Below, in pieces: positions 15,213 to 55,774 of a stretch of 64,000 nt of DNA. Every line of letters starts with the position of its first letter. The stretch's first letter is position 1. Source of the DNA: a virus; IMG/VR virus record IMGVR_UViG_3300046804_002762, positions 1 to 64,000 of that record. One strand, written 5' to 3'. A model generated the notes under the pieces. It was not told where the DNA came from. It did not search any database and worked only from the letters and a program-made list of their open reading frames with translations. The position numbers and the translations under genes were made by a program.

Positions 15213-15219
15213 ATACTTA

Positions 15220-15977: not shown

Positions 15978-15978
15978 T
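15951..15978 (+). promoter_or_regulatory. Sigma70-like promoter
   Basis: TTGACA-16-TATAAT upstream of ORF 16003. Confidence 0.65.
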
Positions 15979-17484: not shown

Positions 17485-17530
17485 AACTGGCACACTCCAA
17501 ATTGACACACCACACAAATTCCACTATACT
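17474..17530 (+). promoter_or_regulatory. Sigma70-like promoter with upstream AACTGGCACA box
   Basis: AACTGGCACA 17485-94, TTGACA 17502, 17-nt spacer, TATACT 17525. Confidence 0.75.
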
Positions 17531-18150: not shown

Positions 18151-18246
18151 TAAATAATAGTGCTTGATTAAGTCGCATTTCTCAAGTGGAAGGGGGCATT
18201 TTGCCCTTTTCTTATATAAATAATATTGCGACTTAAATCAAAGCAG
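18151..18246 (+). promoter_or_regulatory. Endonuclease leader module (late promoter / hairpin / terminator / late promoter / complementary arm)
   Basis: TAAATA 18151. Arm tgcttgattaagtcgca pairs with tgcgacttaaatcaaagca. Internal hairpin gaagggggca-ttt-tgcccttttc. TATAAATA 18215. Confidence 0.7.
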
Positions 18247-18858
18247 ATGGAATACTACACTTACGCATACCTGCGTGAAGATGGAACACCTTACTATATT
18301 GGTAAAGGTAAAAATCGCAGGGCTTTTGATAGGAAAAAGCACACCGTATTTGTTCCTTCTACAAACAGGATACTTTTATTGAAACAAAATCTAACAGAAG
18401 AAGAAGCATTTAGGCACGAAATCTATATGATTGGTGTGTTTGGTAGAAAAGATTTGGGAACTGGTATTCTTCATAATAAAACTGATGGAGGAGAAGGTTC
18501 AAGTGGATATAGGCATATTAATGAGTATAAAAATACAATTAGGCAAAAACAATTGAAACGATGGTCAAAGGAAGAAGAAAGAAATAAAATAACGGGTGAT
18601 AAAAATCCATTTTTTGGCAAAAAACACACTAAAGAAACAAAAGAAAAAATATCTGCTGATAGTAAATTGAGAACTAAAGGTTCTGATAATGGAAATTCAA
18701 AATCGTGGAAAATAACTTTTGAAAATGGAAAAGATGTAATTACTGATTGTATGAGTTCTTGGTGTAAAATAAATTCCTACAACTATTGGAGTGTCATAAA
18801 TGTGTATAAAAACCTTTCCAAAAATCACAAGGGTATTGTTTCCGTAATTCAATTGTGA
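18247..18858 (+). CDS. GIY-YIG homing endonuclease with NUMOD3 motif
   Basis: 'YYTYAYLREDGTPYYIGKGK..R..E..GILHNKTDGGEG' and 'NPFFGKKHTKETKEKIS'. Confidence 0.85.
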   Translation: MEYYTYAYLREDGTPYYIGKGKNRRAFDRKKHTVFVPSTNRILLLKQNLTEEEAFRHEIYMIGVFGRKDLGTGILHNKTDGGEGSSGYRHINEYKNTIRQKQLKRWSKEEERNKITGDKNPFFGKKHTKETKEKISADSKLRTKGSDNGNSKSWKITFENGKDVITDCMSSWCKINSYNYWSVINVYKNLSKNHKGIVSVIQL

Positions 18859-36896: not shown

Positions 36897-37487
36897 ATGC
36901 TAACATTCAAAGAGTTTTATAGTATTTGTGAAGGGAAAAAAACAAAAGATCTTCCATATGTAGTTCCTGGTACTTATCAAGAAAAAGATGGTGTAAAGAT
37001 ATACACTCTCAAGAGAGATGATGGACAAAAGAGAGAACCAATCAAGTCTGCAAAGAAAATATCCAAAATGCTTGATAAGCAAGGTGGAATTGGTGGTAAA
37101 GCAATAAAAAAAGCAATAAAAAAAGCAGGAAAGAAAGTTAAATCAGTCTCTGAAGATCTGGAAGCAAGAAGACAGCAACTTGCAAAAAGACAAAGAGATA
37201 ATGTTTCTGCATTTAGGGAAAGATCCATTGCATCAGTAAATGCACAGAGAGAAAGAGTTGCAAATCAAAAAGAACGCGAAGAGTTAAAGAGGGAAATTAA
37301 GAAAGAACTGCAGACAGAGCAGCATCCCACAATGCAACCCAATGAATATAACAAACAGGTAGCAAGACAATCTGCACGTTGGAAAGGTATGCAAATCCGT
37401 CAGGCACATGGTGAAATGGAGCACGAAGCAGGAGCACAACTAGCAGCAAAGAAAGCAAGAATGAAAGCAATTATGTCAAGAAAATAG
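36897..37487 (+). CDS. Basic late protein, putative internal head protein
   Basis: N-terminus 'MLTFKEFYSICE' resembles the T4 capsid-targeting sequence. It lies downstream of TAAATA 36676 and is K/R-rich. Confidence 0.5.
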   Translation: MLTFKEFYSICEGKKTKDLPYVVPGTYQEKDGVKIYTLKRDDGQKREPIKSAKKISKMLDKQGGIGGKAIKKAIKKAGKKVKSVSEDLEARRQQLAKRQRDNVSAFRERSIASVNAQRERVANQKEREELKREIKKELQTEQHPTMQPNEYNKQVARQSARWKGMQIRQAHGEMEHEAGAQLAAKKARMKAIMSRK

Positions 37488-37491
37488 TACA

Positions 37492-37593
37492 TAAATAATG
37501 ATGCCTTAATTGACTCGCATCTTTAAGGTTGGAGAGGAGAAATCCTCTCCTTTTAATATAAATAATACTGCGAGTCAATTTAAGAGCAGAACT
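37492..37593 (+). promoter_or_regulatory. Endonuclease leader module (near-identical to 47195..47294)
   Basis: TAAATA, arms aattgactcgca / tgcgagtcaatt, hairpin ggagagga-GAAA-tcctctcc followed by TTTT, then TATAAATA. Confidence 0.75.
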
Positions 37594-37679: not shown

Positions 37680-38335
37680 TAAAAACTTTGGGGCCTTGAA
37701 AGTGTTCTAATAATGTAAGCACTCAAACTCAAATGGAAGACTTTGATGACCTTTTAGTAGAAGAGTTTTCTTCTTTTGACTTTCTTGAAGAGATGAATGA
37801 AGGTCTCTTTGAAGAGCAAGATAATTTGAAATCCTTCAACAACTATTTGAACTCCAATTACGATTGCTGATTATGACTCCTGACACTTACACTTTTTCTG
37901 GCGATGCTGTTACCTTCCTTGGTTTGGTTGGTGTTGCTTCAACGCTTCTTATTGTTGTTACTTCTTTCCGCAGGTTTTTCAACAGTCCTTACAATGTTCG
38001 TGTGACACCTAAAGTTACTCAAGAGACCACCACTGAAATTACTGAATCCTGAACTAATGACTCAAACTGTAAACGTCCTGCCTCATCTTGAAGAACTGAA
38101 AAATGCTTGGCGTAAGCAAGATTTTAAGTTCAGTTCAACACAAAATGAAGAGTATCAAATGCTTCTTCAAGCACGACGAGAAAGGGTTAGGTGGTTCTAC
38201 GAAACTGGTCAAGTATGTAAAGTCAGTAAATCTGCACAAGATAAACTGAAGGAAGACAACTAAACAATGGTGCTGCAGTTGAGAAACTGAACACTGACTC
38301 TTGACTAAATACCTAAAAAGACTTATTCTGTAGAG

Positions 38336-38938
38336 ATGAAAACATTTTCTCAATTTTGTGCAGAAGCATATGATGCTTCCTTTATGTCTGGAGCACAAAT
38401 TCGCAGAACAGGCGAAGGTGGGCGTATTGGATCTTTGAGAAAAAAGACTGCCCCCGAAAAGCGTAGAATGGCACAGGCAAAACCAGGAGAAGAAAGAAAA
38501 CCAACAGAATATAAACCAAGAAAGGATATTGGTACTCAAAGACAAGCATCTACAAGAGTTCAACAACCAACACAAGAACGTGGATCTGCTGATGTAAAAG
38601 CAAAAGCAGCAGCGGCAGCAAAAGAAGAAAGAAAGAAAGCAGCACTTGCTAGAATTGCTGCAAAGAAAGGTGGAGCAGCACCAGCAGCAGAAAAACCAAA
38701 AGCAAAAGAAGCAGAAAAGACAGCAACTAAACTACTTGCAAAGAAGAAAACTGAAGTAGATTTAAGACCTGCTGATCAACCAAAACGTCCTGTTGTTGGT
38801 ATGTCAAGAGAGAAAAGAAAGGACATTACAAGAAGAGGTCATAGAAAACTTGAAACTCTTGTAAGACAATCTGAGGCAGAAAAGCAAGGTAAGAAACCAG
38901 AGCAAGTTCAACTTAAGCACGACTATAGACCTAAGTAA
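38336..38938 (+). CDS. Lys/Ala-rich late protein, putative internal head protein
   Basis: TAAATA at 38306. N-terminus 'MKTFSQFCAEA' resembles T4 IPIII 'MKTYQEFIAE'. Confidence 0.55.
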   Translation: MKTFSQFCAEAYDASFMSGAQIRRTGEGGRIGSLRKKTAPEKRRMAQAKPGEERKPTEYKPRKDIGTQRQASTRVQQPTQERGSADVKAKAAAAAKEERKKAALARIAAKKGGAAPAAEKPKAKEAEKTATKLLAKKKTEVDLRPADQPKRPVVGMSREKRKDITRRGHRKLETLVRQSEAEKQGKKPEQVQLKHDYRPK

Positions 38939-39503
38939 TCTAACTCTGGGGCCTTGAAAGTGTCCCTGTAGTATAAGCACTTCCTTCATAATGGACCGAA
39001 TCGAAATCCAACGCGCACTCTATGATGCTCGCAATGAGTATGCGAAGGCAAAGAAATCTGTAGAGTTTTGGACTCGTGAGATTTCTTTCTTGAAAGAGTG
39101 TGAAGACAACCTCAATAAAGGTCGCACTGGTGATTGGTTGTTTAATGAAATGTTTGGCGATACTCCACTCGCTGAAGAAGTTTATGGGGGTTGATTAAAC
39201 CTCATCAGCACGCTCAGATTAACCTCTAAGCGTGCTATTTTTGTCTTTAGATACCAAACCACTGAGAACAATGAATTACATTCAGATCCCTGATTATGTC
39301 TATGAGCGTATGCTCAAGACTCTTCAAAATGGCGTCGATGTGTGCTATAATGTAGATCATTCCTCGGATATTACTGAACAGTCTCCGAGTTATGCAAATG
39401 GTTACAGTCGCGCTACAATGCAGAGTGTGATCTCTGATTTGAAATACTGCAAAGAGCAACAGAACTAAACTCTGGGGCCTTCAAAGTGTCCTTATATTAG
39501 ATA

Positions 39504-40745
39504 ATGATTCCAATGCAAATCCAACTTCGCCCTCATCAAGAACGCGGTGTTGCTGCTATGCAAAAGCACCCTAAAGGTCAACTGATCGTTCCAACGGGAG
39601 GAGGAAAAACTCTCAAGATGATCTATGATGCTCTGCGCGAGTTGCAGTCTGAAACTCCCCAGACCATTGTTGTTGTTGCTCCTCGCATTTTGCTTGCTGA
39701 GCAACTTTCTGCTGAGTTCCTTGAGTTTATCACCAACGCCAAGGTTTTTCACGTTCACAGTGGCGAAACTCATCACGAGTCTTCCACTCGCCCTCGTGAG
39801 ATTCGTAACTGGGTTGATGCTAATGCTGGCAATCATCGCCTGATTGTAACCACCTACAATTCTCTGTCGCGTCTCCAAGTAGCAGAGATTGATGTGGATA
39901 CGATCTACTTTGATGAGGCACATAACAGCGTTCAGCGTCATTTTTTCCCTGCAACTGAGCACTTTGCTGCTAATGCACGTCGCTGCTACTTTCTGACGGC
40001 AACCCCAAAACATTCTCTTGCTGTCGGCAAACCAGGGATGAATGATGCTGCTGTTTATGGTCAGGTGATCTGCAAAGTTCCTGCTCCTGAGTTGGTTGAA
40101 GGTGGATACATTGTTCCCCCTAAAGTGATCGTCAAGCAACTGCCTATGGTAACTGGTAAGCAGACCAACTTCGACCGTGATTCGGAGAATCTGCTAGAAA
40201 CCATTGATGACAATCAAGTCGGCAAGATTTTGATCTGCGCTAAGGCAACCAAGCAGATTGTTTCTCTGGTTTCTGAGACTGACTTCTGTTCTGAGTTGGA
40301 GTCTCGCGGTTATTCTTGGATGTATATCACGGCAAAGACGGGTGCTGTCATCGACGGTAAGAAAGTGAACCGTGAGGTATTCTTCGACACGCTATCTGCC
40401 TGGGGTAAGGATAACGATAAGAAGTTCGTTGTTCTCCACCACTCCATCCTGGCAGAAGGTATCAACGTGTCGGGTTTGGAAGCAGTTCTCTTCCTGCGTA
40501 ATATGGACTTTATTGGTATCTCCCAAACTATCGGACGCTGTATCAGGTTGCATCACGATGATGCCAAAGGTCTGCGCGATGGACGTATCGAACCTGGCAA
40601 CCTTGCTCAGTATAGCAAATCGTTCGGTCTTGTTTGTATTCCCATTTACTCAAAAGTAGGAATCGCTACTGCCCGCGCAGTTCAGTCTGTCGTTGATACG
40701 ATCTTTGAGAAGGGCGAACCTGCCATCAGCACTGTGAGGCGGTGA
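39504..40745 (+). CDS. Superfamily 2 DEAH helicase (ResIII-like)
   Basis: Q motif 'LRPHQ', Walker A 'PTGGGKT', 'DEAH', 'TATP' and 'QTIGRCIR'. Confidence 0.9.
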   Translation: MIPMQIQLRPHQERGVAAMQKHPKGQLIVPTGGGKTLKMIYDALRELQSETPQTIVVVAPRILLAEQLSAEFLEFITNAKVFHVHSGETHHESSTRPREIRNWVDANAGNHRLIVTTYNSLSRLQVAEIDVDTIYFDEAHNSVQRHFFPATEHFAANARRCYFLTATPKHSLAVGKPGMNDAAVYGQVICKVPAPELVEGGYIVPPKVIVKQLPMVTGKQTNFDRDSENLLETIDDNQVGKILICAKATKQIVSLVSETDFCSELESRGYSWMYITAKTGAVIDGKKVNREVFFDTLSAWGKDNDKKFVVLHHSILAEGINVSGLEAVLFLRNMDFIGISQTIGRCIRLHHDDAKGLRDGRIEPGNLAQYSKSFGLVCIPIYSKVGIATARAVQSVVDTIFEKGEPAISTVRR

Positions 40746-40862
40746 GTCTCACAGTAGACTCAAGGCCCTGACTGGACTGAAAACCTGATTTTTCTGCAAT
40801 TCTACCTGAAGGGTGTCATAGGTCATCCTCCGCAACCAAATCAACGATTTTTTGGAAAGTGT
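40741..40862 (-). repeat. ~121-bp element, inverted homolog of 50201..50321
   Basis: The reverse complement aligns almost without gaps to 50201..50321: acactttc..tcg..attt..tgcgg(a/g)ggatgaccta..aat.gca..ggtttt..gagac.cacc. Confidence 0.75.
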
Positions 40863-40872
40863 AGAATAGGGC

Positions 40873-40901
40873 TTGAAATCCCTACCCAAAGTTGTTAAAC
40901 T
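40873..40901 (+). promoter_or_regulatory. Sigma70-like promoter
   Basis: TTGAAA-17-TAAACT upstream of ATG 40933. Confidence 0.6.
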
Positions 40902-40932
40902 ATCTCCTGTAGTTGCTTTTAGCACAAACACA

Positions 40933-41919
40933 ATGACTATTATTTCTATTCCCCTGAAAGGCGTTTCGCCTCAACTTCGCGCTGAAATTGAATCTAAACT
41001 TCCCGAACCTCTTAAAGTTCCTGGTTGGAAGTTTAATGGTTATCAATGGCGTTTGCTGTCACAGATTAACACCAAAGATTCTGAAGGAAACACTGACAAT
41101 AGTGTTAGAATCTCTGGAACTGGTGACAATGAGACCTTGCAGATTTCTCTCCGTAAGGGTATTGATGTAAATAAACTTACCCCATCAATTTATCCCAACG
41201 ATAACTTGATGAATGGATTCAATAGGATTAAAAATCTTCTTGAAATTGGATACAAAGAGTGGATCTTTGCAGAATATGTTGAAGATGAATCTACTCGCAG
41301 TGAGTTTCAAGAATCTTTTGAAGAATGTTTGGATGACTTTCGCGCCGCTGCAAATGCGGGAGATGGTCAGAAAGTAATCAGCGACAAAGAAGTAGAAGAA
41401 CTTGCCAGAAAGAGATTTGGGCATCGTAAGGATCAGAGTAAGCAATCTATTGCTAAATGGATTCGCACTCTTGATCTTAATTGGAGTGGTCAAAAGATTG
41501 ATGGTGTAGCTAACAAAGTCTCTAAAGATTTTACGCGCAAAGGTGTAATTGAATCATACAATCGTGATGAAGCACAACAGTTTCTAAACGATAATGGTAT
41601 TGGTGCTGATCTTCTTAACACTAAAGATTCTACTCGTGTTGCACGTCTTTATCCTCAAATTATGAGGAACTTTGTTAAAAATGGTGTAACTATGGATCTT
41701 GCATTGTTTGATAGTGACGCTTGCTCTCACGAAGAACTTGATAATCGCCAAAAAGAAACCCTTGATGAACTTAAAGAGTATGATGAGTTGGTTATGCAAT
41801 ATGCCGCAAAGCGTATGCTTATGATTGGTATTCATCCTTGGAACATTATTGGTTCAATCTCTCAAAAGATTGGTGTTGAAGAACAGAAACTGGAAAATGG
41901 TTTGGTTCCTGTAGAATGA
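40933..41919 (+). CDS. Hypothetical protein with possible ParB/Srx-like N-terminal domain
   Basis: 'PSIY..LMNGFNRIKNL' resembles the ParB GxxR motif. The assignment is weak. Confidence 0.4.
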   Translation: MTIISIPLKGVSPQLRAEIESKLPEPLKVPGWKFNGYQWRLLSQINTKDSEGNTDNSVRISGTGDNETLQISLRKGIDVNKLTPSIYPNDNLMNGFNRIKNLLEIGYKEWIFAEYVEDESTRSEFQESFEECLDDFRAAANAGDGQKVISDKEVEELARKRFGHRKDQSKQSIAKWIRTLDLNWSGQKIDGVANKVSKDFTRKGVIESYNRDEAQQFLNDNGIGADLLNTKDSTRVARLYPQIMRNFVKNGVTMDLALFDSDACSHEELDNRQKETLDELKEYDELVMQYAAKRMLMIGIHPWNIIGSISQKIGVEEQKLENGLVPVE

Positions 41920-42145
41920 AAGAAGGATTTACAATGTTCAAAGACACCTATGCTGCTGTTCCTTACGGGAATCAGTATCTTATCATTCACAATGGTCAGC
42001 AACTTGAGAAACTGTGTAGGACTGAAAGTTCTGCACGGAAATATATCACTGACCATAGGAAAAGTGTGTCATTAGGCAAACTTCCAATGTGATTCTAACT
42101 TTGGGGCCTTGAAAGTGTTCCTATAGTGTAGTCACCTATTCCCAA

Positions 42146-42688
42146 ATGACTTTTTACTGGACGTTCGTTGACACTCTTGTTAAGAACGTCGCTACCATCA
42201 GTGCCATTGTTGTTGGAGTCAGTCAGTTTCTGATTCGTTCATTTAATGAGAACAATGGTCGTGAAAAAGTTCGTGCTGCAACGCTTCAATTCCTGAAGTT
42301 TGTTGATACGCTGATTGAATTTGGTAAAGCACAACTTTCTCCTGCTGAAGTAGTAGAGCAACCTCAAGTTGTACCTGCTACTGTTACCAAAACCCGCAAG
42401 CGTCGTTCCGCTTGATAAACTGTCACAAGAGCACTTGCAATTCAGCAGGTGCTCCTTTATTGTACATTTGTTCTTGAAACTCCAATGATTTTCCTTACTG
42501 TTCCCGACCACGGTTGTGTTTATACTCTCTCGCAAGAAGATGGGGATGAGTTGTATTATGCTCCCATCTATGCAAATGGTAATGTAAATCTTGAGGAGTT
42601 TGCTCCTGTAGATTTAGATTCTGCAGATATGGATGAGATGGAACTCTTTGATATTCGCAATCGTCTTGCCAAACTGATGGAGGTTTAA
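42146..42688 (+). other. Two small hypothetical ORFs (42146..42415, ~42485..42688) with an internal AACTGTCACA promoter
   Basis: ORF track, plus AACTGTCACA 42418 and TTGCAA-17-TATTGT. Confidence 0.55.
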
Positions 42689-42738
42689 TGTAACTCTGGG
42701 GCCTTGAAACTGTACCTATAGCATAACCATTAGACAAA

Positions 42739-43236
42739 ATGACTCCCGAACAGAGATTCCAACAACTATTTGAGGAAATGTATCAACTTTGTGAAGAGCA
42801 AGGTTGGGGAGATCCTTTCAGTTATGCTCGCTCCCGTGAGATTCATCTTGCTGGTATTCTTGGGCATAAAGTAGCAGAAACCTATTCTGGTGCTGATGCT
42901 GTGGATGAAGATGGTGAATGTGAGTATAAATCTACCATTGCCAATTCTATCAATGGGACGTATAATGGTATCAGTGTTCAAGATACCTGGGAAGAGCAAG
43001 AGCGTTATTTAATTGAGGAGAAACTTGGTAAGTATTCCAATCACTATATTGCTCGCTATGAGGGTGGCAAAGTTGTAGAAGTTTGGAAACTGACTGGTGA
43101 TAATGTGCTGATGGTTCTGCTTCCTAAACTAAAGAAAGATTGGGAGCGTAAGATTCACGGTAAGCACAAAGATCCCCGTCTCTCTGGTAATCTAACTAAG
43201 AAAGAAATCCAACAGTTTGGGACTCGCATTGTATGA
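42739..43236 (+). CDS. Putative PD-(D/E)xK restriction-like endonuclease
   Basis: 'E..GADAVDEDGECEYKS' fits D-Xn-E-x-K. It overlaps the downstream MTase (ATGA). Confidence 0.5.
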   Translation: MTPEQRFQQLFEEMYQLCEEQGWGDPFSYARSREIHLAGILGHKVAETYSGADAVDEDGECEYKSTIANSINGTYNGISVQDTWEEQERYLIEEKLGKYSNHYIARYEGGKVVEVWKLTGDNVLMVLLPKLKKDWERKIHGKHKDPRLSGNLTKKEIQQFGTRIV

Positions 43237-43784
43237 CGATTGATAGTGGAAAACTAATGTATTCGGAGGGTAACAATGACGAATGTTACACTCCGTTTTA
43301 TGCTGTAACTCCCATTCTGAAGTATATTCCCAAAGATGCAAAAGTCTGGTGTCCTTTTGACACTGCTGAGAGCGAGTTTGTTAAGCAAATCTCCCAAACT
43401 CATAGTGTAGAATACTCTCACATAAGTGAAGGAAAAGATTTCTTTACCTATGAACCTTTTCACTGGGATGTGATTGTATCCAATCCACCATTCACAAACA
43501 AACGTAAGTTCTTTGAGCGAGCATTATCATTTGACAAACCATTTGCTCTGATTATGACTAACACTTGGTTGAATGATAGTGCTCCGAAGCAGTTGTTTAA
43601 GGACAAGGATTTGCAACTGTTGATGTTTGACAAGCGTATGAAGTTTAACAGTCCTGATGGTCGTCCAAACGACAAGATTACGTTCAGTTCTAGTTACTAC
43701 TGCTGGAACTTTCTTCCCAAGCAAATCATTATGGAAGAACTTAACATACCAAAGAGCACATCAGAAGCAAAACTTCCTCTATAA
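43233..43784 (+). CDS. Small amino (N6-adenine) DNA methyltransferase
   Basis: 'DECYTP..VWCPFD..GKDFF..DVIVSNPPF', with NPPF as motif IV. Confidence 0.8.
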   Translation: MTIDSGKLMYSEGNNDECYTPFYAVTPILKYIPKDAKVWCPFDTAESEFVKQISQTHSVEYSHISEGKDFFTYEPFHWDVIVSNPPFTNKRKFFERALSFDKPFALIMTNTWLNDSAPKQLFKDKDLQLLMFDKRMKFNSPDGRPNDKITFSSSYYCWNFLPKQIIMEELNIPKSTSEAKLPL

Positions 43785-43819
43785 CACTAACTCTGGGGCC
43801 TTGAAACTGTACCTATAGT

Positions 43820-44716
43820 ATGAAGAACACTCACCTAGAACATCCTGAAGATAGCATCCTTACGGGTGATCTATCTGTGCTTGATTGGTTCTCTGAACCT
43901 GATAGTTCGATCAGTGTCAAGATAGATGGTGCTCCTGCCATAGTTTTTGGTACTGATCCTGAAACTGGTAAGTTTTTTGTGGGCACCAAGTCGGTATTCA
44001 ACAAGAAAAAGATTAAGGTTAATTATAGTATTGAAGACATTCTGCGGAATCACGGTAACACTGTTCGCGTTGCAGAGATTCTTATTGCCTGCTTCGACAA
44101 TCTGCCCCGAATTGATGGTATCATTCAAGGTGATTTCATTGGATACGGTGGAGACGACACTTATCGTCCCAACACTATCACTTACAAGTTTCCGAATTGT
44201 GTAGAGGAAGCAATTATCTTTGCTCCTCACACTACCTATTCTGGTCCTAATTTGCGTGAGTGTGTTGCATCTTTCGGTGCAGATGTCCCTGACTGTGAGA
44301 ATGTGAAATGGGTGCAACCTGAGGCATCTATTTGCCCTCATCGTGAGGATATTGAAGATGTGTGCAAGTTTGCTAAACAAATGAGCACTCTATGTGAGTT
44401 CGTAAGTAACAAACAAGTAGCAGAACTCAAAAAAGTCATCAATTCCTACATTCGTGAGGGTAAGGAGGTGGATGAGCATGAAATTGCAGAAAATTTCGAT
44501 GTTGATGTGAACCTGCTGCGACTGTGGAAGTTGGTGTATTCAATCAAGGTCGATTTGTTCTTCTTCATTGATGCTGACGACAGTATTTCGTGTGAGATTG
44601 GTGGAAGGGAGTCTGTTCACGAAGGTTTCGTAATGACCAACAAGTTTGGTACTTACAAAGTAGTTGACCGCGCAGAGTTTAGCAGACTCAATTTTACACT
44701 TGAAAAGAGTTGGTAA
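43820..44716 (+). CDS. DUF6267-like protein with ligase-type KxDG motif
   Basis: 'KNTHLEHPED..SVKIDGAPAIVFG..FFVGTKSVFNK..QGD..EGFV..KVVDR.EFS..NF'. Confidence 0.65.
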   Translation: MKNTHLEHPEDSILTGDLSVLDWFSEPDSSISVKIDGAPAIVFGTDPETGKFFVGTKSVFNKKKIKVNYSIEDILRNHGNTVRVAEILIACFDNLPRIDGIIQGDFIGYGGDDTYRPNTITYKFPNCVEEAIIFAPHTTYSGPNLRECVASFGADVPDCENVKWVQPEASICPHREDIEDVCKFAKQMSTLCEFVSNKQVAELKKVINSYIREGKEVDEHEIAENFDVDVNLLRLWKLVYSIKVDLFFFIDADDSISCEIGGRESVHEGFVMTNKFGTYKVVDRAEFSRLNFTLEKSW

Positions 44717-44745
44717 CTCTGGGGCCTTGAAAGTGTCCTTATAGT

Positions 44746-45513
44746 ATGAGCACTGCACAAAGTCAAATGATTAACCAAATCGCTGAAATGATTGTGGATG
44801 CTGCTAATGATCCACGCACCGCCGATAACATCCGCGAAATGCACAAACACCCACAAGGTGCAGAAACTTTGCGTCTGATTGTGCGTGATAATGTAGCAGG
44901 TGCTGCTGATGTAGTTGCTAATGCTCTCTGGAACAATCTCTGAAACTAAAATGACTACCACGTTCGCAGAATACGCTGCACAGAAAGATGCACAAAACAC
45001 AATCTATCTTAACATTGTTAAGTATGGTCTGATGCTATGTGATGCTCTGACCGCTGATGCGCCTGATAATTACTTCTATGAACTGGATAGTTCTGGTCGT
45101 AAGTATCATCGAATCTGGATGTACATTGGCGATCGTCGTGATAGCATCCACGCCTTTATTGATAAGAAAACAGGTTCAGTATTGAAACCTGCAAGTGTAA
45201 AGGCACCTGCAAAGGGTGAGCGTTACAATCTCCTCTCTATTCCTTCCCGCGAGAAGTGTCTTGAGAGTGCAGATTGGTCGGGTGGTTATCTTTACGCAAA
45301 ATGAACTACAAAGATCAACTGCTTCTTGAAATCAATCAAATCTGGCAGCAACTTACTGATGCTGGATGTAAAAATGCTGCTGATGGTGTAGATGCTGCGA
45401 TTGCTTCTGCAGGTAATGACCTGACTAAGATTATGGCAGCGCACGATTATGCTTGCTGGCATTTACAAGAACTGGAAAAAATGAGTTTGATTGATTCAAC
45501 AATTATTGAGTGA
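44746..45513 (+). other. Three small hypothetical ORFs (44746, ~44951, ~45301)
   Basis: ORF track. The first ORF begins at the terminal ATG of a repeat copy. Confidence 0.6.
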
Positions 45514-45519
45514 AATGAA

Positions 45520-46017
45520 TTACTCTAACATCATAACCTTTACATAACCTTTATGTGACTTTCTATTACCTTTTGCTACATTACATAGATGTGACTTTGA
45601 GAGATTATTCTCACGACAATACTTCGCAAGATTAGTAACTTCAATAACTTCTCCAGTTTCTTTAGTTAAAATCCAACTTTTTTCTGCTATTGTTCTACCT
45701 TCATTCTCAAACTTTTCTCTTTGAGATTTATTACCTTTCACTCCATTCTCTTTAACCTTATCTGGATTTTGTTCTCTCCACTTTTTACCACCTTCTAAAA
45801 TAACATCCATAAATGCTTTATTTCTTGCTCTTCTAAACTCTGGATTTTTTACATCACCTAAAATCATTTTGTAAGCACAAAAATCTTTATAATCTCCCAA
45901 CAACTTCCACTCACAAAAGTGAAACATAGCGTGTTGAGTTGGTGTTACTTCCACAAGATTTGTTGGGTCGTCGGTCCCACCTCTGTGTTTAGGAATGATG
46001 TGATGTTTGTGCTTCAT
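45520..46017 (-). CDS. HNH homing endonuclease (opposite strand)
   Basis: 'KHKHHIIPKHRGGTDDPTNLVEVTPTQHAMFH', a C-terminal NUMOD1-like region and a minus-strand TAAATA at 46045-40. Confidence 0.85.
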   Translation of the reverse strand: MKHKHHIIPKHRGGTDDPTNLVEVTPTQHAMFHFCEWKLLGDYKDFCAYKMILGDVKNPEFRRARNKAFMDVILEGGKKWREQNPDKVKENGVKGNKSQREKFENEGRTIAEKSWILTKETGEVIEVTNLAKYCRENNLSKSHLCNVAKGNRKSHKGYVKVMMLE

Positions 46018-46183
46018 TTTTAACCAAAGTTGCCATTATTATTTAGCACAATATTATGCTTTTGATAACACTACCGATCCTAAACTTCAACGCTTCATTT
46101 ATACGGAGATCAAAAAGATTCTCATTCAGCAAGGTAAATGGTGAGCAACAGTAACTCTGGGGCCTTGAAAGTGTCCCTATAGT

Positions 46184-47194
46184 ATGAGAACAACCACTGA
46201 AACCAAGATGAACACCAACATCGTCTCCGAAATCTACTCCTATCACACGAATTGGAAGGAGGGTAAAGTCAACCAGATGTGGATTCAGCAAGTGAATGAC
46301 AAGTTCATCGCTATTGCATACAATCCCGAAAAGAATGTTTCGATGCCTATGTCGAAACCCCGCACTTCCTACCAAGAGACTCTCAAATGGGTTCGCGGTT
46401 GGTGTGGTACTTTCTGCACACTTCCTGCCTGATTGATTATGCTAACCTCTGGAATCTTAGTCCTGGTTGCTTACTCTTTAGGAGCAGCACAAGTCCTTCT
46501 CGTCCAACACTTTCTTCGCAAATGAATAAACTCACTAAAGCACAAAAAGAGATTCTTCTCACTCTTGAGAATGGAGATGAAGTTCTCAACTGGTCTCAAC
46601 GGATGCGAGCACTTCAACCGCTGATTGATGCTGGTATTGTTTATATCAAAGAAACCAAAGATCCAAATGGTCATACAAACAGTGTAAGAGTCGCACTGGT
46701 TGATTGATGATGAAAAACTATCGCGTTCGTGTTGAAACTAACGATGGATGTGTGACGATTTGGTATGAGAAATCCAATGCAAAGACTGCGGACAAACTGA
46801 TACTCAATCGGGTATACAATCAACTCTGTGGTCTAAACATTAAAGAAATCTCTGTTAATCCCTCTGTCTGATCATGACTGACCTTCGTTATTCTACTGGT
46901 GAGGAACTTGAGCAGTTCTTGTATGAGAAATGTCGTGAAGATGCTGACCTTCTGGCAACTATCATCAGCGAATATGTGTCCTCTCTGAGTGATAGCAAAC
47001 TCTTTGAACTTGAGGACTTTCTTTCTAACAACTTTGGAGACGATTGAATTGTGAAATACGAAGTTAAAATGTATCAAGGTGGAAGAACTTTCGTTGAAGA
47101 AGTTTATGCTCCTGACCCCAAATCTGCAAGAGAGACTGCACAAGTTCGCAATCCTTCGTGTAAAGTTATTGGAGTAAATGTTTCTTTCAAGTAA
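46184..47194 (+). other. Cassette of ~5 small hypothetical ORFs
   Basis: Starts at repeat ATG 46184. The ORFs are packed. Confidence 0.55.
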
Positions 47195-47294
47195 TAAATA
47201 ATGATGCCTTAACTGACTCGCATCTTTAAGGTTGGAGAGGAGAAATCCTCTCCTTTTAGTATAAATAATACTGCGAGTCATTTCAAGAGCAGTT
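47195..47294 (+). promoter_or_regulatory. Endonuclease leader module (near-identical to 37492..37593)
   Basis: Same sequence and architecture with a few substitutions. Confidence 0.75.
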
Positions 47295-47828
47295 ATGCAA
47301 AAAGTAAGCGTTCAAGCATTGAACGAATGTTTCAATGTATCTGGCCCCGATTATGTTGAAATGCCTGAAGATTGGAAAGATGTTGGTAATGAGTATCTAT
47401 CAATTTTAGCAAGTAAAGCAGGTAAAATAAGTGCAGAAGTACAGAGAGAAAATCAAATAGGTATTTTTTCATTAACAAAAGAAGATAGGGTGAAAAATGG
47501 AAGAAAGGGAGGTTTAATTTCTGGAAATAATAATAAGAAAAACAAAACGGGTTTCTGTGGAAGAAGTAAAGAAAAGATGAGTATAGATGGTAGAAAAGCG
47601 GGAAAAATAGGAGGAAAAGTTAATGGCAAATTAACTTACGAAAATAAAACTGGTATTCACGGATTATCTAAAGAAGAAACAAAAAGAAATGCAAGTATGG
47701 GAGGAAAAGTAATAAGTTCTCAAAGATGGAAATGTTTAGTTACGGGATTTATTTCAACCGCTGGTGCATTAGGAAATTATCAAAAAGCAAGAGGAATTGA
47801 TACTTCGCAGAGAGTAAGAGTTGAATAA
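47295..47828 (+). CDS. Homing-endonuclease-related protein lacking an evident catalytic domain
   Basis: G(R/K)KGG repeats and C-terminal 'QRWKCLVTGFISTAGALGNYQKARGID', resembling HNH C-termini. No HNH or GIY-YIG motif is visible. Confidence 0.5.
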   Translation: MQKVSVQALNECFNVSGPDYVEMPEDWKDVGNEYLSILASKAGKISAEVQRENQIGIFSLTKEDRVKNGRKGGLISGNNNKKNKTGFCGRSKEKMSIDGRKAGKIGGKVNGKLTYENKTGIHGLSKEETKRNASMGGKVISSQRWKCLVTGFISTAGALGNYQKARGIDTSQRVRVE

Positions 47829-48694
47829 TACTCAATGCAACTTTCAAATAACAGTAACTCTGGGGCCTTCAAAGTGTCCCTATAGTATGAGCACAACCTT
47901 TTCCGTCCGATTCGATTCCAATGCACTCAATTCGCCTGAGTATATTGGACCTTTCTACACTGAAGATGAGGCACAAGATTATGCTGATGATCGCAACAGT
48001 TCGTTAGCATTATCAGGTGTTCCTTCAAGTGTAGCATTTTACTCTGTTGTTTCCTGATTATGAAGTTCATTGGTAACTGCATTAACTCTTTTGATGAGAA
48101 TGGTGATTGTATCATTCCTTCACTTCCATTCGCAAATGTTACAGAGTTCGCTCAACTTGTGGAAGAAAGTGATAATGTAGAGATTGGTGATTTCATTATT
48201 CAATACAACGAAGAAACCGACGTTCATTCATTCTACTTTAACTGATTATGTTGTTCCAAGTTACTGCAATCGAGTTTGATTACGATGAAGATGATGACTT
48301 TCCCGAGCATCAATTCTCAAACATTACCGATGAAACAATCGGTATGATTTGGGAAGCAGATGATGAAGATGATCTAGTTGAAGAGATTACTGCTGCAACA
48401 GGTTGGTGTATCAAATCTCTTGATTATCGCCACATTCTGAAATGATTTCCCTTCCTAATTTCACAAACAAAATGACATTCACTGATTCACTGATTTCACA
48501 AGGTTATGTCTTCGATGATGAGAATTATGATGGTTGTTATGTAAAGCAAGATGCTGATGGTTTCATTCACCTTTATCAGGAAAATGTGGATGATGAAACT
48601 GACACTCTCTGGAATTATGTAAAGATGACTGAGGATTATGATGTCATCGAAGAAAAGACTTTTGCTCCTAACTGCAACTAATTTCACAAACAAA

Positions 48695-48842
48695 ATGGAC
48701 CTTACTCAAGAACAATACGATTCGTCGAACTGTAGCAGTTGCAGGTCTTAAAAAGACTTTCCCACTTAACATTCACGGTCGTATTTACAACACTCAAAAG
48801 GAATATGATGATGCACTTGCTGACTTTATCAATGGTCTCTAA
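48695..48842 (+). pseudogene. Chimeric/frameshifted paralog of ORF 49086..49277
   Basis: ATG 48695 (MDLTQEQYD..) is out of frame with 'RTVAVAGLKKTFPLNIHGRIYNTQKEYDDALADFINGL*'. Compare 'RMVSDAGRQNVTYPRNIHGRIFETEADYKEALADFINGL*' in the intact gene. Confidence 0.7.
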
Positions 48843-50200
48843 TTCTAACTCTGGGGCCTTGAAAGTGTCCCTATAGTATGAACAACACTCCAATCGACTT
48901 CCAAACCGACATCACTCCTACACTTCTGGAGTTTATGTGCAACAATCACACTGATCTGAATGACTGTGTAGACTTTGTTTGCTGTCAATTTGATCTCGAT
49001 GCAACTGATGAGTTGATTGATCAGATTGCAGATGAGTTTGATGCTTTCTTCGGTAACTGATTCACACAAACACTTTTCCCACTAATTGAAACAAATGACA
49101 AACTACAATCCTTACGTTCAAAACCTGATTGAGATGGGTTACGATGAGCAAGACTGCCGTATGGTTTCTGATGCTGGTCGCCAGAATGTAACCTACCCTC
49201 GTAACATTCACGGTCGCATCTTTGAGACTGAAGCAGACTATAAAGAAGCACTTGCTGACTTCATCAATGGTCTGTAGAGTTAAAGTTACTCACCTCCAAA
49301 GTGTCCTAGTAGTATGAGCACTGACATCACCCCGATTATAAATCTATTTCAGGAGTTTGCATCTAATCTGCCTGATGGATTCTGGAAGTTTATTGTACTT
49401 CTCTTCCTTGTTTATGGATTAGGTGCTTTGATTGCATTTAATTCTTCTTCCAAAGACAACACAAGTCCTCTCTTCTGGGTTGACTTCTCTGATGATTCTG
49501 ACATCAACGGCGATTCCTGATTTCAAACTATGATCTACACTTCTCCTCTCACCTCTAAAGTCTATCAAATCGTTGAGACTTCACACACACGCAATGCCTG
49601 GGATGAGCAAGGCAATCTAACACCTTATCAGCAATCTGTCTTTGAGATCTATTATGAAGGACAGAAAGTGCAGTTTGCATTAACTGCTGAAGGTGTTGCT
49701 GCGAGTGTAGCACATCTTGAGAATCCTGGTCCTGATGTATCTTCCCGCTATGATTGATGGCAAGGAGACTAACACTTAAGAGTCCATCCCAAGTGAAAAC
49801 TATTGCCCTCATTTTTGCTGTTGCGTTTATACTCTCACCTGGAGTTCGCAACATCACCTCTAGCACATTACACACTGTAGCAAACATTATCTCACAACAA
49901 CAATGAGTTTCTCAACTGCTGAAATTACTGCTCTTAAATCATTGATAGAGTTTCATGATGATTGGGATGAAGTAAGTGAACTTATGGGCACTGATATAGA
50001 AGCATTGTACGAAAAAGTTTGTGAACTTGACACCAATGATTGAGACTGATTTTTACATTTTAAGTGGCGAACAATATCAAGAGTTTTATACCGAAGCACA
50101 GAAGATTGGTGTGACTATTGATTACTTTCTTGATGAGTTTTGTTATGTTGAAGGACCATACATTGTGAGTGATTAAGCAGCACATCTTTCTCACTAATTA

Positions 50201-50321
50201 ACACTTTCACTTTTTTCGACAATTTCACTGCGGGGGATGACCTAGACTGCCTGACAAGTGAAATCGCAAGTTTTTTCGGTTTTTGCTTGAGTGCTGGACT
50301 GGGATCTCAGCGAGACGCACC
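50201..50321 (+). repeat. ~121-bp non-coding element, homolog of 40741..40862 (inverted)
   Basis: See the alignment given for 40741..40862. Confidence 0.75.
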
Positions 50322-53094
50322 TGAGACTGAGACCTGATACCAGCAGCAGCGAGCAAATCCTACAAAGTAACACAAACTCTTCAGTGAATAACAGTAACTC
50401 TGGGGCCTTGAAAGTGTCCCTATAGTATGAGCACTTCCCAAATGATCCAAGATAACATCGATCGCATTCAAGATAGCATCAATCTGGCATCCAAACTTGC
50501 CCGAGACAATTATGATGCTCGCAATGGCATTATTGACCGCATGAGAATTGATTGGTCTGAACATGCACATCGTTTGACTTATATTGCAGGTGAGTGTTCG
50601 TATTACTTTCCTCTGCACAATCAGAACGGCGATAAGATTAACGAGGTGAAACTCTATTGTCGTTGCTCTCCTACTGTAAAAGGAGGAGTTCGCTTCTCTT
50701 ACACTCTGAACGGTAAGACTATTGCTCGCACCAAGATTGTGAATCGTTTGATTGAACTGGGAGTTTGAATTATGAATCTCTATATCATCAACGAAGTCCT
50801 GTCTGATTATACCTCTGGAATGGCAGTAATTGCTGCTGAGTCTAAGGAACACTGCCGCGAGTTGTTTATCGAAGAGTTTGGCGAATACTATGCTGATTGT
50901 TTCGATAAGGATGCAAAGTTCACTGTTATCGAAGGTGTAAATCATGTTGCTGGTGTGGTAGATTATGTGTACGGTGGAGGTTGATTCCTACCTCACTGCC
51001 AATTAAAGTTACTCACCTCCAAAGTGTCCTAGTAGTATGACAACCACTGAAATGACCAAAATGACTCAAACTCCCTCCGAACTTCTCTACAACGAAGCAC
51101 TCAACTTTCTGGTTAATTACTTCAATCATTTTGATAAAGAGGAACTTCAATTTTATGGCAAACTGTATGTGAGCGATATTGTCAACATTCTTGGATATGC
51201 GACCTTTGAAGATAATCTTAACACTGAGGTTGGTTATATTTCCAATGTGACGACTCTGAATCGTCTCCGCAATGAAATTGTCGATCGTTTCTATAACTAA
51301 CTATGACTGCATTTGTAACTCCCAAAAGCAAAAAAGCACAGAATCGTTTCTGTAACTTAATGAATCAAAATAATGAATGTATTGTTGAGCAACATCGAGG
51401 TGATAAGGTGTTTCTCACTTCTGCTAACGGTAAGTATCACTTTTGGGCGAATCTTAACCACGACAAAGACTGGAACATTGAGTTGAATTAAAGTAACTCT
51501 GGGGCCTTCAAAGTGTCCTAGTAGTATGAACATCACTGACCTCTTCGATTCCATCAAACTCTCTGAGCAACTTGCGCTCGAAAACTATCAGCAACGCAAC
51601 GGTGTTGTTGATTATCGTCTCGATGGAGTTTGTCATCACTACTTCGCAAAGTATGATCTGAATGGCACTCGCACTGGTGAGATTTGCCTCACCTGTAAAG
51701 TTTCCAAAACTGTAAAAGGTTCACTTCGTTATACTTTCCAGATCGACGGTAAGCGTATCGCAGAGAAGCAAATCCCTGCAGAGTTTAACCTTCTGGGTGC
51801 CTTCCGTAATTGAAACTCTGGGGACTTGAAAGTGTCCCTATAGTATAACCACAACGCTTCTCACAATGCGAGTCATCGAACGTCAAATGAATCAAGCAAT
51901 CTCCCAAGAGATTGATTGGAAAAAGGATAACACTGAAGTTATCAACATTGAAGGTGTAAGTTTCGTCTATCTGTATAGCAATCTGATTGCAATGGTAGGT
52001 GATACTTGGTTGGAATTGTTTGATGGTGGGCATAAGTCAGCAACCACCAAGTCTCGTCTTAATGCTATTCTGAAAGAGCATGGAAATAGCGAATACATCT
52101 ACCAGAAAAACTTCAACTGGTTTGTGTCTACCAAGTACGGTGATGTTCCTTTCAATGATGGCATCAAACTGAACTGAACTATGATGACTGATACCGACAA
52201 AGTGTTCGCACTAACTGAACTTCTCAATGACGTAATTCACACTCTTGAAATGAAACAGTATGACATCGAAGATGCTACTCTGTCTTATGAATGTGTGACT
52301 GATGCTGATAAGTTTCGCCAAAAGATGATCGACATTCTTTATCCCAACAAATGACAAAATCCTTCAAAAAGTTCATCTGGAAAGACTCTAACTCCGACCA
52401 AACAAAGGTTATTCTTGCCAGGTCAGAATACCAAGCAAGGAAACAAAACTTCGGCAATCTTGCTGGTTATCTTTACTCTCACTCTGTTCCTCTTAACTGA
52501 TGTTCACGATTCGTTATTTCACTCCTTATCAACAAGTCTGGAGAACGCAAAGTTTCTCTACATTAGAGGAAGCAAATCGTATGGTTGACTTCTATCGCTC
52601 TTGTGGATCTCCTGCTGAATTACTAACCAAATGACTGAACTTCAAAAAGATTCAATTCTTGCAAACATCGTTGAACAAGTACAATCTCGAATCACATATC
52701 TTGTCGAGCAAAATCTAATTGAAGAGTCTTATGCTCTGTATAAGGAATGGGAAGAACATCTAGACGATAATATCAGAGAACTTGAAATTATCACTGTTAT
52801 TGACCTCACTACAATTAACTGATTATGATTACTCTCACCACTGTTAATCTGCCTTTCATCATTAACAAGGAAAAGACCAAAGATGAGAAGCAAGAAGGTA
52901 TGTTTGCTCTCTACTTTTACAGTCGAAAGATTATACACAAGAACAGAGTAAGGTATAAGTTTGAACCTCTAAGATTCGATGGTAAGCAAGCACGTTTCAA
53001 GTCAAGAAAGGATGCCAAACGTTATGCTCAGTACCGATTAGGGATTGATTGATTATACTGTAGAGAGGGTACTTATACCCTCTTTTTTTATTGC

Positions 53095-53871
53095 TTACTG
53101 ATAGAACCAATAACAACCTTTCCAGGTATATTTGTGCGGATGTTTGAGTGATTTAGTACAACCACTATCTCCACCAGTGCCCAGTTCTCTCCCTGCTGCT
53201 CTTACACTTGGGAAGGCATATTTGATTTTATTTGTTACTTTATCTACGCCATAAATCGCATAACTTTTCTTTTTATCTTCCAACTTGATTATTCTGTGCC
53301 CCTTAACTTTCCATCCGTGTTTAATGTAACGATGAAGATTTGAAACTGCTATATCTAAACTCTCAGCACATTCTGTTATACTATCATAGTAAGTTTCTTC
53401 CAAGGTATCAACATTTATTGTTTTTACCTTAACTCTACTATGTTTACCATCACCTCTAATAGTAAAATTAGCACCACTTCTTTTCATTCCTTTTCTTATA
53501 TTTTCTATGTGCTCTGGTGTTTTCTCAACTCCAGTCATTGTGTCGCTTATTCTATCTTTTAGTTCGTCGCTTATTCTATACTGTCCTCCAGCACCTGATG
53601 TCTGATTGTAACCATTATTGTAGGAATTGTATTCACTAATCCAGTAAGTTTCTCTTTCATCAAGTATATCTGATGAACACTCTTCTATCACTCTTATGTT
53701 AAACTTATCTGCCCCATATTTGCGAAGAGATTTGTATAGTGGAGAGGGATTCATTCTCCTCGCTTCATATAGATGTTCTTTCCATCTTTTGTTCAGTTCA
53801 TTTATAGTTTGACCCACATAATACTTACCAGTTTCTTTATTGTAGATTGCGTAGATTATTCCTTGGTTCAT
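53095..53871 (-). CDS. GIY-YIG homing endonuclease (opposite strand) with NUMOD motifs
   Basis: 'GIIYAIYNKETGKYYVGQT..RWKEH..E..WISEYNSYNNGYN'. Confidence 0.9.
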   Translation of the reverse strand: MNQGIIYAIYNKETGKYYVGQTINELNKRWKEHLYEARRMNPSPLYKSLRKYGADKFNIRVIEECSSDILDERETYWISEYNSYNNGYNQTSGAGGQYRISDELKDRISDTMTGVEKTPEHIENIRKGMKRSGANFTIRGDGKHSRVKVKTINVDTLEETYYDSITECAESLDIAVSNLHRYIKHGWKVKGHRIIKLEDKKKSYAIYGVDKVTNKIKYAFPSVRAAGRELGTGGDSGCTKSLKHPHKYTWKGCYWFYQ

Positions 53872-54134
53872 TACTGATAAGACGCTCTAATAATATGTAT
53901 AAATAGCAGGTTTTTTACTGATAGATTGCTATACTAAACTGTGGAAAACTAAATGTAAAATAAAAGGTATAGTAGTTTGTTATACCGTTTGTATTATATT
54001 TGATAAATGTGAGTTCTTGTAGTGATCTTACCCGACGTTAGCACAGGACCGCACTTTTGTCAACCCCAGCGTCACAAAATCCCCACAATCCCCCCGCATA
54101 AAATCACCATCCCCTCATAAATACCCTCAAGACC

Positions 54135-54163
54135 TTGACACAAACTCCCAGGCATCTTACAAT
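54135..54163 (+). promoter_or_regulatory. Sigma70-like promoter
   Basis: TTGACA-17-TACAAT, followed by SD AGGAG and ATG 54192. Confidence 0.75.
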
Positions 54164-54191
54164 ACACTCATAACACACCAGGAGCGTACTT

Positions 54192-54365
54192 ATGTCAGTT
54201 GCTTATAGTCAGGCACAGAAGCAGCGTTATAGAATCACTCTGGATTTATCAGTGTTCGGTGACTTCGACCCCCACCAGATTGATTGGGAGAAGTTATTCA
54301 AGTTGGAACCTGCAGAGAAGTGTGAGGCGTATGTAGAGGACTTAAGTACACCTGACCGTTGGTGA
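54192..54365 (+). CDS. Small hypothetical protein (57 aa, below the ORF-track cutoff)
   Basis: MSVAYSQAQKQRYRITLDLSVFGDFDPHQIDWEKLF..., with a promoter and SD. Confidence 0.65.
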   Translation: MSVAYSQAQKQRYRITLDLSVFGDFDPHQIDWEKLFKLEPAEKCEAYVEDLSTPDRW

Positions 54366-54436
54366 GTGTTAGTAACTCTGGGGCCTTGAAAGTGTCCCTA
54401 TAGTATAGACACCAATCAACCGCAAATCTCCGACAA

Positions 54437-55774
54437 ATGACTATTCTCAAAGACATGTACACTGGTAAAGTTCGTCTCTCTCTTGTGGAATATGATGCCT
54501 TCCTGAGTGCAATCGAAGGTCTGCAATCGTTCGTTTTGAGCACCAACGCAGATTGTGAAATGGCATACGATTGGGTATGCGATCAGTGCAACATTCATTC
54601 CTTTGTTGCTGATCACTACGCTTGGGATTTGTTCTTCAAAACCTACGAATCTGCAATCGACTGAGTTACACTTTTCCCACTTCAATTCTTCACCAAATGA
54701 CTAACACTTTCCGAGTTGTAATTCCTACCGCTGATGGTATACAAGTCGCTGGAGAGTTTCCTACTCGCTTGTTCGCAAGTATGTTCCAGCAAGTTATCCT
54801 TACTGATCGCGGTCTTAAGTGTATGATTGAAGAGTTCATTAACGGTCAATGGTTGGACTGAATCCTTCCATTCTCACTTACACTTTTTCCCCTAAACTTT
54901 TCCTGAAATGACTGTTACTTACCAACGCAATGCTCTCGACATTTCCTATAACGGTTGGGAGAATTATGAGACCTGGAATGTTGCTCTCTGGATCAACAAT
55001 GATGAGGGTTTGTATGACATCGCTCGTCGTTGTGATGATTATCAAGACTTCGTAGATGCGGTCGAAGGACTTATCTCTAAGACGCCTGACGGAGTATCAT
55101 TCACTGACCCGAAAGTGAACGTGATTCAGATTAACTCAGACTTGTTCGATTTCTAGTCTTAAGTATCACTCACCGATCACACAGTTACTAACACTCAAAT
55201 GACTCAATCACGCACCGTCACCTTCACTAACGTTCAGGACAATGTGGAGCGTACTGTAGAGTTTCCTGATTATAGCAGTGCCTACCGATTCGTCACCACT
55301 TTGCATATCGCTGGTGTCCAAGCAGTGGTTAATCTTCTCCCTGAAGATATCGCTGCCTGATAACACTTAAGACTCACACAGTTACTCATACACAATGCGT
55401 TACATTTCCTCCAGTCGTTATACGCTTGATGAGATCGCTGAGCAATGTCGTCTGGCAGTATTAGCAGCAAGTCCTAACACTCAAGAGCGTACAGATCTTT
55501 ATACTGAGGTCCGTAAGTTCTATCACTACAGCAACCCTCTCCTGGTTGCACAGTAAGGTATCACAAGAGGAATGAGATGCGCCTCTATAAAGACACTCAC
55601 CAAACACACAGTTTCTAACAACAAACAACACAAATGTCTAAGCAAGTTCTCATCTCTCTGCTGGCACAAGGTAATACTGGTGCTGAGATTCTTCAGATCC
55701 TGGATACTCTGGGCAGTGAGCAATCTTCGGAGGGTGCTTATAATGAACCCACTGCAGATGTGATCGAGTTCTGA
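54437..55774 (+). other. Six small hypothetical ORFs (54437, ~54697, 54908, 55199, 55395, 55634)
   Basis: ORFs with AC/pyrimidine-rich, SD-less leaders. Confidence 0.55.

Follow-up and report, generated by a model that had tools for sequence, protein, structure and literature searches.

The DNA analysed here (the window, 64,000 nucleotides, nt) comprises the initial 64 kb of a contig of 95.7 kb from the IMG/VR database, the virus record IMGVR_UViG_3300046804_002762, whose estimated completeness is 44%. Between positions 37,683 and 54,412 it carries 16 copies of a short repeat, all on the + strand, which punctuate an array of small genes surrounding the gene for the UvsW helicase. The contig comes from an uncultured T4-like cyanomyovirus, and the host group of this virus is freshwater cyanobacteria. 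At the DNA level the window is closest to T4-like myoviruses of Synechococcus, with the match at the uvsW helicase. The best DNA matches for the array stretch come from freshwater metagenomes, and a search for RNA runs that contain 44000-53900 gave none. The counterpart of the array is the small open reading frame (ORF) region of phage Syn9; the repeat region is syntenic with 47-54 kb of this phage (gp69, uvsW gp75, gp79 and gp90), as well as with 41-50 kb of the phage SynMITS9220M01, and in both genomes the syntenic region directly precedes the baseplate genes gp25/gp6. The array is made up of ORFs of 36-298 amino acids (aa), mostly without a family match, together with two homing endonuclease genes.

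A repeat search of the window grouped the copies into 14 of type A (families D1/D2 of the search) and two identical copies of type B (family D4, at 49280 and 51003). This agrees with a previous reading made from the sequence only, which had described 14 type-A and two type-B copies, co-oriented and intergenic, within 16.7 kb. A 31-nt consensus with at most three mismatches was found 11 times, versus 0 in 100 shuffles, and a pattern for the 16-nt core, searched in the whole 95.7-kb contig, gave 14 forward and 0 reverse matches, all within 37,690-54,395; outside this region the contig has no copy of the repeat, and its reverse strand has none at all. The copies occupy gaps of 29-71 nt between + strand ORFs, which the repeat had been said to fill, or, for the first copy, lie at the end of a degenerate ORF. 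The two types have in common the 3' core AAAGTGTCCCTATAGTRT, and their 5' half is interchangeable, being CTCTGGGGCCTT in type A and GTTACTCACCTC in type B.

The first copy (37683-37722) is of type A with a degenerate 3' half (TTCTAATAATGT), and the second (38941-38980) is the ATA variant of type A, followed by a start codon at 38991. Copy 3 (39467-39506, type A) stands immediately 5' of uvsW (39504-40745) and is degenerate in the part that resembles a promoter -10 element, and copy 4 (42096-42135) is a GTA variant of type A. Copy 5 (42691-42730, type A) shows a private variant, GAAACTGTACC, that is also present in copy 6 (43788-43827); copy 5 is the left edge of a restriction-modification-like cassette of two overlapping genes (42739-43784, + strand) that code for a 165-aa protein of phrog_35715 and a 183-aa DNA methyltransferase of phrog_799. 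Copies 7 (44714-44753), 8 (46152-46191, the type-A consensus), 9 (47855-47894), 10 (48846-48885) and 12 (50395-50434) are of type A. Copy 11 (49280-49321) is of type B, with the 5' half GTTACTCACCTC in the form seen in SynMITS9220M01, and 38 nt of it are identical in copy 13 (51003-51044). Copy 14 (51494-51533) is a chimera in which a type-A 5' half is joined to CAAAGTGTCCTAGTAGTATGA, the 3' variant that the two type-B copies close by also carry. The last two copies, 15 (51813-51852) and 16 (54373-54412), are again ATA variants of type A, with start codons at 51866 and 54437. Copies 6 to 14 contain an ATG (at 43820, 44746, 46184, 47887, 48878, 49314, 50427, 51037 and 51526, respectively), and all nine of these triplets, previously proposed to be start codons at the end of the repeat, open ORFs of 56-298 codons.

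Type-A copies can form a hairpin of roughly -9 kcal/mol, for which most z-scores lie in the range from 0 to -1, and type B has none; no U-tract follows the repeat hairpin, and no compensatory changes supporting it were found in the 290 copies described below. A stem-loop of the kind present in the PeSL cassettes of T4-type phages was therefore rejected, given this weak fold and the lack of covariation. The reverse complements of six core or tail words of the repeat (8-12 nt), looked for as the trace of a complementary small RNA, are absent from the window except for isolated occurrences at 16675 and 25702.

The type-A pattern was found in 79 IMG/VR stretches, in which it often forms an array of co-oriented copies, up to 10 of them. 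A sequence logo was obtained from 290 distinct copies in these stretches and the source contig, with positions numbered from the T of TGGGG. The conserved block extends from -5 to +33 and reads AAC(T/C)CTGGGGCCTT(S)AAAGTGTCCCTATAGTAT(G/A)A(G)CAC, after which comes a G-poor, A/C-rich stretch. The residues T22, A23 and T27 are near-invariant in all variants, type B and TGTAGTAT included, so that positions +22 to +27 show the TAnnnT signature of a -10 hexamer (TAGTAT or TAGTGT); a hexamer read as TATAGT fails in 23% of the copies, in which position 21 is G. The 5' half can be replaced, since type B and a few other forms bear the same 3' core. Among cultured phages, the good matches in the complete 190-kb genome of the marine SynMITS9220M01 amount to nine copies of type B, which all lie on the + strand around uvsW (38.9-50.0 kb); S-SM2 carries at least three type-B copies. 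Syn9 has instead 4-5 copies of a different element, confined to 46.3-53.0 kb, in the syntenic position before gp25/gp6, and P-TIM40 (12898-18343) holds a Syn9-like element in its early region. The Syn9/P-TIM40 element consists of TGTGACAGTT, 3-5 nt, (T/A)AGTG(T/G)C(A/C)CA, approximately 30 nt, a TATAAT-like hexamer, approximately 20 nt and an ATG; it shares with the repeat an AGTGTC box and a TATA-type -10, at a spacing that differs by approximately 30 nt, and the pattern GTGT-N3/4-TATARKR is not enriched in P-TIM40. An origin of the core in the host was rejected, since 596 Gb of bacterial genomes gave only 15 scattered single matches, none of them cyanobacterial, which is the level expected by chance. 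Literature searches found no published description of the repeat motif.

Evidence for exchange of gene blocks at the repeats came from the comparison with the 79 related stretches, which had been chosen for carrying the repeat. The blocks that align with these relatives often start at the 5' edge of a repeat or stop at its 3' edge. A 1.07-kb cassette with the methyltransferase gene (42713-43788) is missing in six of them (L014, L027, L034, L066, L067 and L083), where one repeat remains at the site and the flanking alignments overlap by 22-34 nt within this single copy; the empty site of L027 bears the private variant GAAACTGTACC that in the window flanks the cassette on both sides. In L036 the methylase cassette is found 3' of the gene for a DUF6267 protein (43820-44716) instead of 5' of it, with the block borders at repeat edges; in L059, L060 and L061 the gene at 41916 immediately precedes the cassette, and in L037 the cassette has yet another downstream neighbour. 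The 165-aa protein of this cassette gave only a sub-threshold PvuII-like match, searches of PDB and NCBIfam gave none, and its assignment as a nuclease stays weak. Three further indels run from repeat to repeat (42121-42686, 44753-46150 and 49321-51526), and the chimeric copy at 51494 also supports a crossover within the element.

Counted over the gene junctions of the array, block boundaries amount to 8.2 per repeat junction (n=16) versus 2.6 per other junction (n=36; Mann-Whitney p = 6e-5). This excess is an overestimate, since alignments end more sharply at a conserved repeat and the relatives were selected for the repeat. When gene order was compared through the proteins, neighbours were separated in 78% of the comparisons at repeat junctions versus 71% at other junctions, and both the bias of the first count and the small size of this second excess weigh against the recombination reading. 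Clean indels that involve no repeat were found at 40860-41915 (after uvsW), 47194-47834, 37879-38037, 52177-52350 and 54712-54878. The first of these is a 1.05-kb insertion with an ORF of 328 aa (40933-41919) that has no match in Pfam, PHROG or NCBIfam; it is present in L036, L060 and L034, and missing in at least 12 related stretches, at the same junction, with no repeat at either end. In contigs of four DNA runs many joints fall at repeats, as expected of any mapped shared repeat, and they were not used as evidence. From the comparison of these sequences, and since several clean indels lack any repeat, the repeats appear as favoured seams for the exchange of gene blocks and not as exclusive ones. 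The sequence-only reading, which had taken the repeat for a crossover site and suggested testing whether the indel breakpoints between relatives fall in it, is supported by four repeat-to-repeat indels, one permutation and one chimeric copy; the indels without a repeat and the similar loss of adjacency at other junctions restrict it. The identical copies of 35-40 bp would be by-product substrates of the phage's own homologous recombination, by which the blocks between two copies are deleted, inserted or permuted among relatives, as in PeSL shuffling. The two homing endonuclease genes, which are free-standing, lie on the opposite strand within the array (45520-46017 and 53095-53871, of the HNH and GIY-YIG types) and may contribute to mosaicism independently of the repeats.

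Regarding the function of the element in gene expression, no other recurrent promoter-like motif was found across the 17 kb of co-directional small genes, and sigma-70-type matches occur in the region at chance level (48 found versus 50.1 expected). The layout of the repeat had been described as not that of a standard sigma-70 promoter, with only 7 nt between TTGAAA and TATAGT, and this description agrees with both the gap and the chance level of sigma-70-type matches. The strong predicted terminator hairpins in the 17 kb are only four, two of them in a duplicated 99-nt module. That the copies are all on the coding strand, intergenic and limited to one 16.7-kb region supports a promoter. Picocyanobacterial promoters, marine and freshwater, commonly carry a -10 element alone. 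Doron and colleagues reportedly described in 2016 a novel regulatory element that drives the early genes of Syn9 and P-TIM40 and is conserved among T4-like cyanophages. On these grounds, that is, the absence of any other motif, the near-invariant TAnnnT, the -10-only promoters of picocyanobacteria and the element reported from Syn9 and P-TIM40, the repeat is read as the early-class promoter of this clade; judged from its sequence, it is most likely a promoter of this class with a -10-like TAGTAT and without a canonical -35.

According to this proposal, the element would head early-type transcription units of small genes in T4-like cyanophages, and the host RNA polymerase would read the -10-like TAGTAT (+22 to +27) and, next to it, the conserved box AAAGTGTCC, these two parts representing the putative functional core. 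By ordinary -10 geometry the transcripts would start at approximately +33 to +35, which would leave leaders of 7-10 nt up to a start codon at +41 to +44. Since the copies are in tandem and co-oriented, with almost no terminators between them, read-through from upstream copies would also cover most genes. Taken together with the exchange of gene blocks, we consider that the repeat is probably (with a probability of about 0.6) a lineage-specific and phage-specific promoter of the early class that doubles as a substrate for homologous recombination, the first role being suggested by its sequence and the second shown by the comparison of relatives.

The start codons provide several of the observations that stand against the promoter half of this proposal. 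In 144/279 copies, positions +26 to +28 form an ATG that overlaps the -10-like hexamer, and in 134 of these 144 (93%) its frame continues into an ORF of 40 codons or more, compared with 0 and 6 for the other two frames; in approximately 40% of the ATG-bearing copies no other start is found nearby, as in the DUF6267 gene. A transcript starting at about +34 would omit the start codon of those genes. The DUF6267 unit consists of one gene only, and a promoter that served only the genes downstream of it would fit poorly. To these points are added the absence of a -35 element at 16-18 nt from the -10-like hexamer, and the limited sequence similarity, with a different spacing, to the elements of Syn9 and P-TIM40. 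Copies that lack the +26 ATG have their start codon between +41 and +44, most often at +43, which is not in the frame of +26; those that do have it frequently carry another ATG in the same frame at +41. At the DUF6267 gene the ATG of repeat copy 6 (43820) is the only plausible start in the window, and the start is the +41 ATG in the relatives L066, L034 and L083; 15 nt have been lost at this site in the window, in L027 and in SynMITS9220M01, and the ATG of the element is left as the only start of the gene as a result of this loss. If the early-class promoter is read through as proposed, ribosomes would meet the ATG of the element mainly on transcripts from upstream copies, and it must consequently be in frame with the next gene. 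Nevertheless, an in-frame ATG that overlaps the -10-like hexamer is unexplained by ordinary promoter geometry.

These start codons are the basis of a rather unlikely alternative, a promoter of unusual geometry whose transcripts start at or just 5' of its own ATG (+21 to +26) and yield leaderless or nearly leaderless early mRNAs, the -10 being the upstream (T/S)AAAGT hexamer, or recognition being helped by a phage protein injected with the DNA. It would account for the +26 ATG in 134/144 copies and as the sole plausible start in approximately 40%, as well as for the single-gene DUF6267 unit, which is conserved across three divergent phages, and for the purine found at +21, +26 and +28 in 97-99% of the 290 copies; furthermore, +9 to +14 of the SynMITS9220M01 copies is TAAAGT in 8/9, a fair -10 that would place the start near +21, and the element is phage-specific and missing from host genomes. 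However, the type-A hexamer is GAAAGT or CAAAGT, without the first T, the Syn9 element has no upstream hexamer and its ATG is at least 17 nt past TATAAG, the near-invariant TAnnnT at +22 to +27 is left without a role, and read-through from upstream copies also explains an ATG in frame. A specific form of this idea, in which transcription starts at or near the embedded AUG and the AAAGTGTCC box is recognised by a factor delivered with the phage DNA, is unlikely. If it were true, a T4-like phage would have a novel means of commandeering the host polymerase in its unmodified state, namely leaderless early mRNAs from a promoter that includes the start codon.

A quite improbable explanation is that the repeat acts in the RNA, within long polycistronic transcripts, as a processing site or as a translation-initiation region independent of a Shine-Dalgarno sequence, and is no promoter. 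The element indeed ends at the start codon or at a fixed 15-18 nt upstream of it, with an AU-rich UAUAGUAUG context followed by a G-poor stretch, and a small hairpin is possible in type A. All genes of the array lack a Shine-Dalgarno sequence: none was found in the ~60 + strand genes of 36000-56500, in which the sequence before the start codon is rich in A/C and poor in G, or the start codon overlaps the stop of the preceding gene (ATGA, TGATTATG). The copies without an ATG have leaders of 10-30 nt of the same A/C-rich, G-poor composition, and the earlier remark that these leaders lack a Shine-Dalgarno sequence holds for every one of them, but as a trait common to the whole array and not special to the repeats. 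Every gene needs translation, yet the element is found at only 16 of the ~52 gene junctions; no other class of promoter is visible that would make the long transcripts, the hairpin is limited to type A and unsupported by compensatory changes, and Rfam contains no match to the element (Rfam and tRNA scans found nothing).

The remaining two explanations are both very unlikely. The sequence-only reading had compared the end of the repeat with promoters of T7/SP6-type single-subunit RNA polymerases. In such a promoter the +1 would be the G of CTATAG; the core GTGTCCCTATAG matches the SP6 promoter at 12/18 positions, and the ~21-nt common core has about the size of such promoters, but conservation reaches ~15 nt farther upstream than in them, and the analogy is further weakened, if only slightly, by the lack of a PF00940 match in the contig, SynMITS9220M01 (MT408532) and Syn9 (NC_008296), a search in which the control genomes remained unmatched too. 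We know of no T4-like cyanophage that carries a single-subunit RNA polymerase. As for sites of site-specific recombination in an integron-like attC array, the gain, loss and permutation of cassettes with borders within repeats is what they would produce, but the IntI-type tyrosine recombinase family PF00589 and likewise PF00239 are absent from the contig (44% complete) and from the complete MT408532, in searches for tyrosine and serine recombinases whose controls were positive in 14/14 and 12/14 genomes, a conserved inverted-repeat structure is unsupported, the crossover overlaps are variable (22-42 nt), as predicted for homologous exchange, and many indels occur without repeats.

Other features of the region were also noted. 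Two strongly basic proteins of ~200 aa, without a family match, are encoded where the array begins (36897-37487 and 38336-38938), and SynMITS9220M01 encodes a homologue of the second. The duplicated 99-nt module is present in two copies that are 96% identical (37491-37589 and 47194-47292); its first part is a terminator hairpin (GGAGAGGAGAAATCCTCTCC and a run of T), and its second a T4-type late promoter, TATAAATA. The second copy of the module heads a gene for a 177-aa protein (47295-47828), and copy and gene are jointly missing in L027 and L029. The density of the late promoter TATAAATA in the array could not be distinguished from that of its flanks. Two conserved non-coding stretches, 40741-40872 and 50177-50330, are related to each other in inverted orientation, and the former terminates in GGAAAGTGTAGAATAG, which is similar to the core of the repeat.

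The findings described here extend the PeSL idea, in which promoter repeats also act as seams for the recombination of accessory genes, from the T4-type phages of enterobacteria and vibrios to cyanophages. They also reveal a cyanophage element of the early type with interchangeable 5' halves around a fixed core, and a concrete case of cassette mobility, in which a cassette that contains a methylase gene moves between slots bounded by repeats. In addition, the in-frame ATG in the -10-like hexamer bears on early transcription in cyanophages and on translation without Shine-Dalgarno sequences. To our knowledge, a role of the cyanophage early regulatory element as a recombination seam has not been reported previously.

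In comparison with the early element reported from Syn9 and P-TIM40, the repeat is similar in being phage-specific and without a sigma-70 consensus, and in occurring as few to many co-oriented copies limited to the small-ORF region around uvsW, 5' of the baseplate genes. In the Syn9/P-TIM40 element, TGTGACAGTT...AGTGTC(A/C)CA lies ~30 nt 5' of TATAAG/TATAAT and the ATG ~17-20 nt beyond, whereas in the source contig there is no gap between the AGTGTCC box and the -10-like part, the element often contains the ATG, and the copy number is 3-4 times higher. With integrons, the array has in common the co-oriented short gene cassettes split by a recurring site; in contrast, it has neither an integrase nor a folded attC, and integrons use one common Pc promoter. 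The label of integron-like array that had been given to it is not supported, since no tyrosine or serine recombinase and no attC-type structure were found and each cassette has its own promoter-like copy.

The design that combines a promoter repeat with shuffling is already known in T4-type phages. PeSL cassettes, composed of a strong sigma-70-type promoter and a transcription-terminating stem-loop, have been described from comparisons of RB49 with phi1, T4 with PST, and KVP40 with nt-1, and their authors likened their own system to integrons (PMC2839356; PMC4122927). Such a mechanism was judged unlikely for the region studied in S-PM2 (PMC4503421). The repeat of the cyanophage array differs from PeSL cassettes in that it has no -35 at 16-18 nt, its TTGAAA being only 7 nt upstream, in that it lacks a U-tract and forms a hairpin in type A only, weak and unsupported by covariation, in the scarcity of strong predicted terminators (four in 17 kb), and in a start codon that often overlaps the -10-like hexamer; two features that define PeSL, the sigma-70 consensus promoter and the terminator stem-loop, are thus lacking. 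On the other hand, in both systems short conserved regulatory repeats separate the small non-essential ORFs of a hyperplastic region in a T4-type genome, in both the borders of insertions, deletions and replacements fall inside the repeats, and neither has a dedicated recombinase. The analogy with PeSL cassettes, already drawn in the sequence-only reading, is the fitting one given these indel borders inside the elements and the small-ORF region of a T4-type genome in which they lie, and the arrangement is one of PeSL-like shuffling and not an integron.

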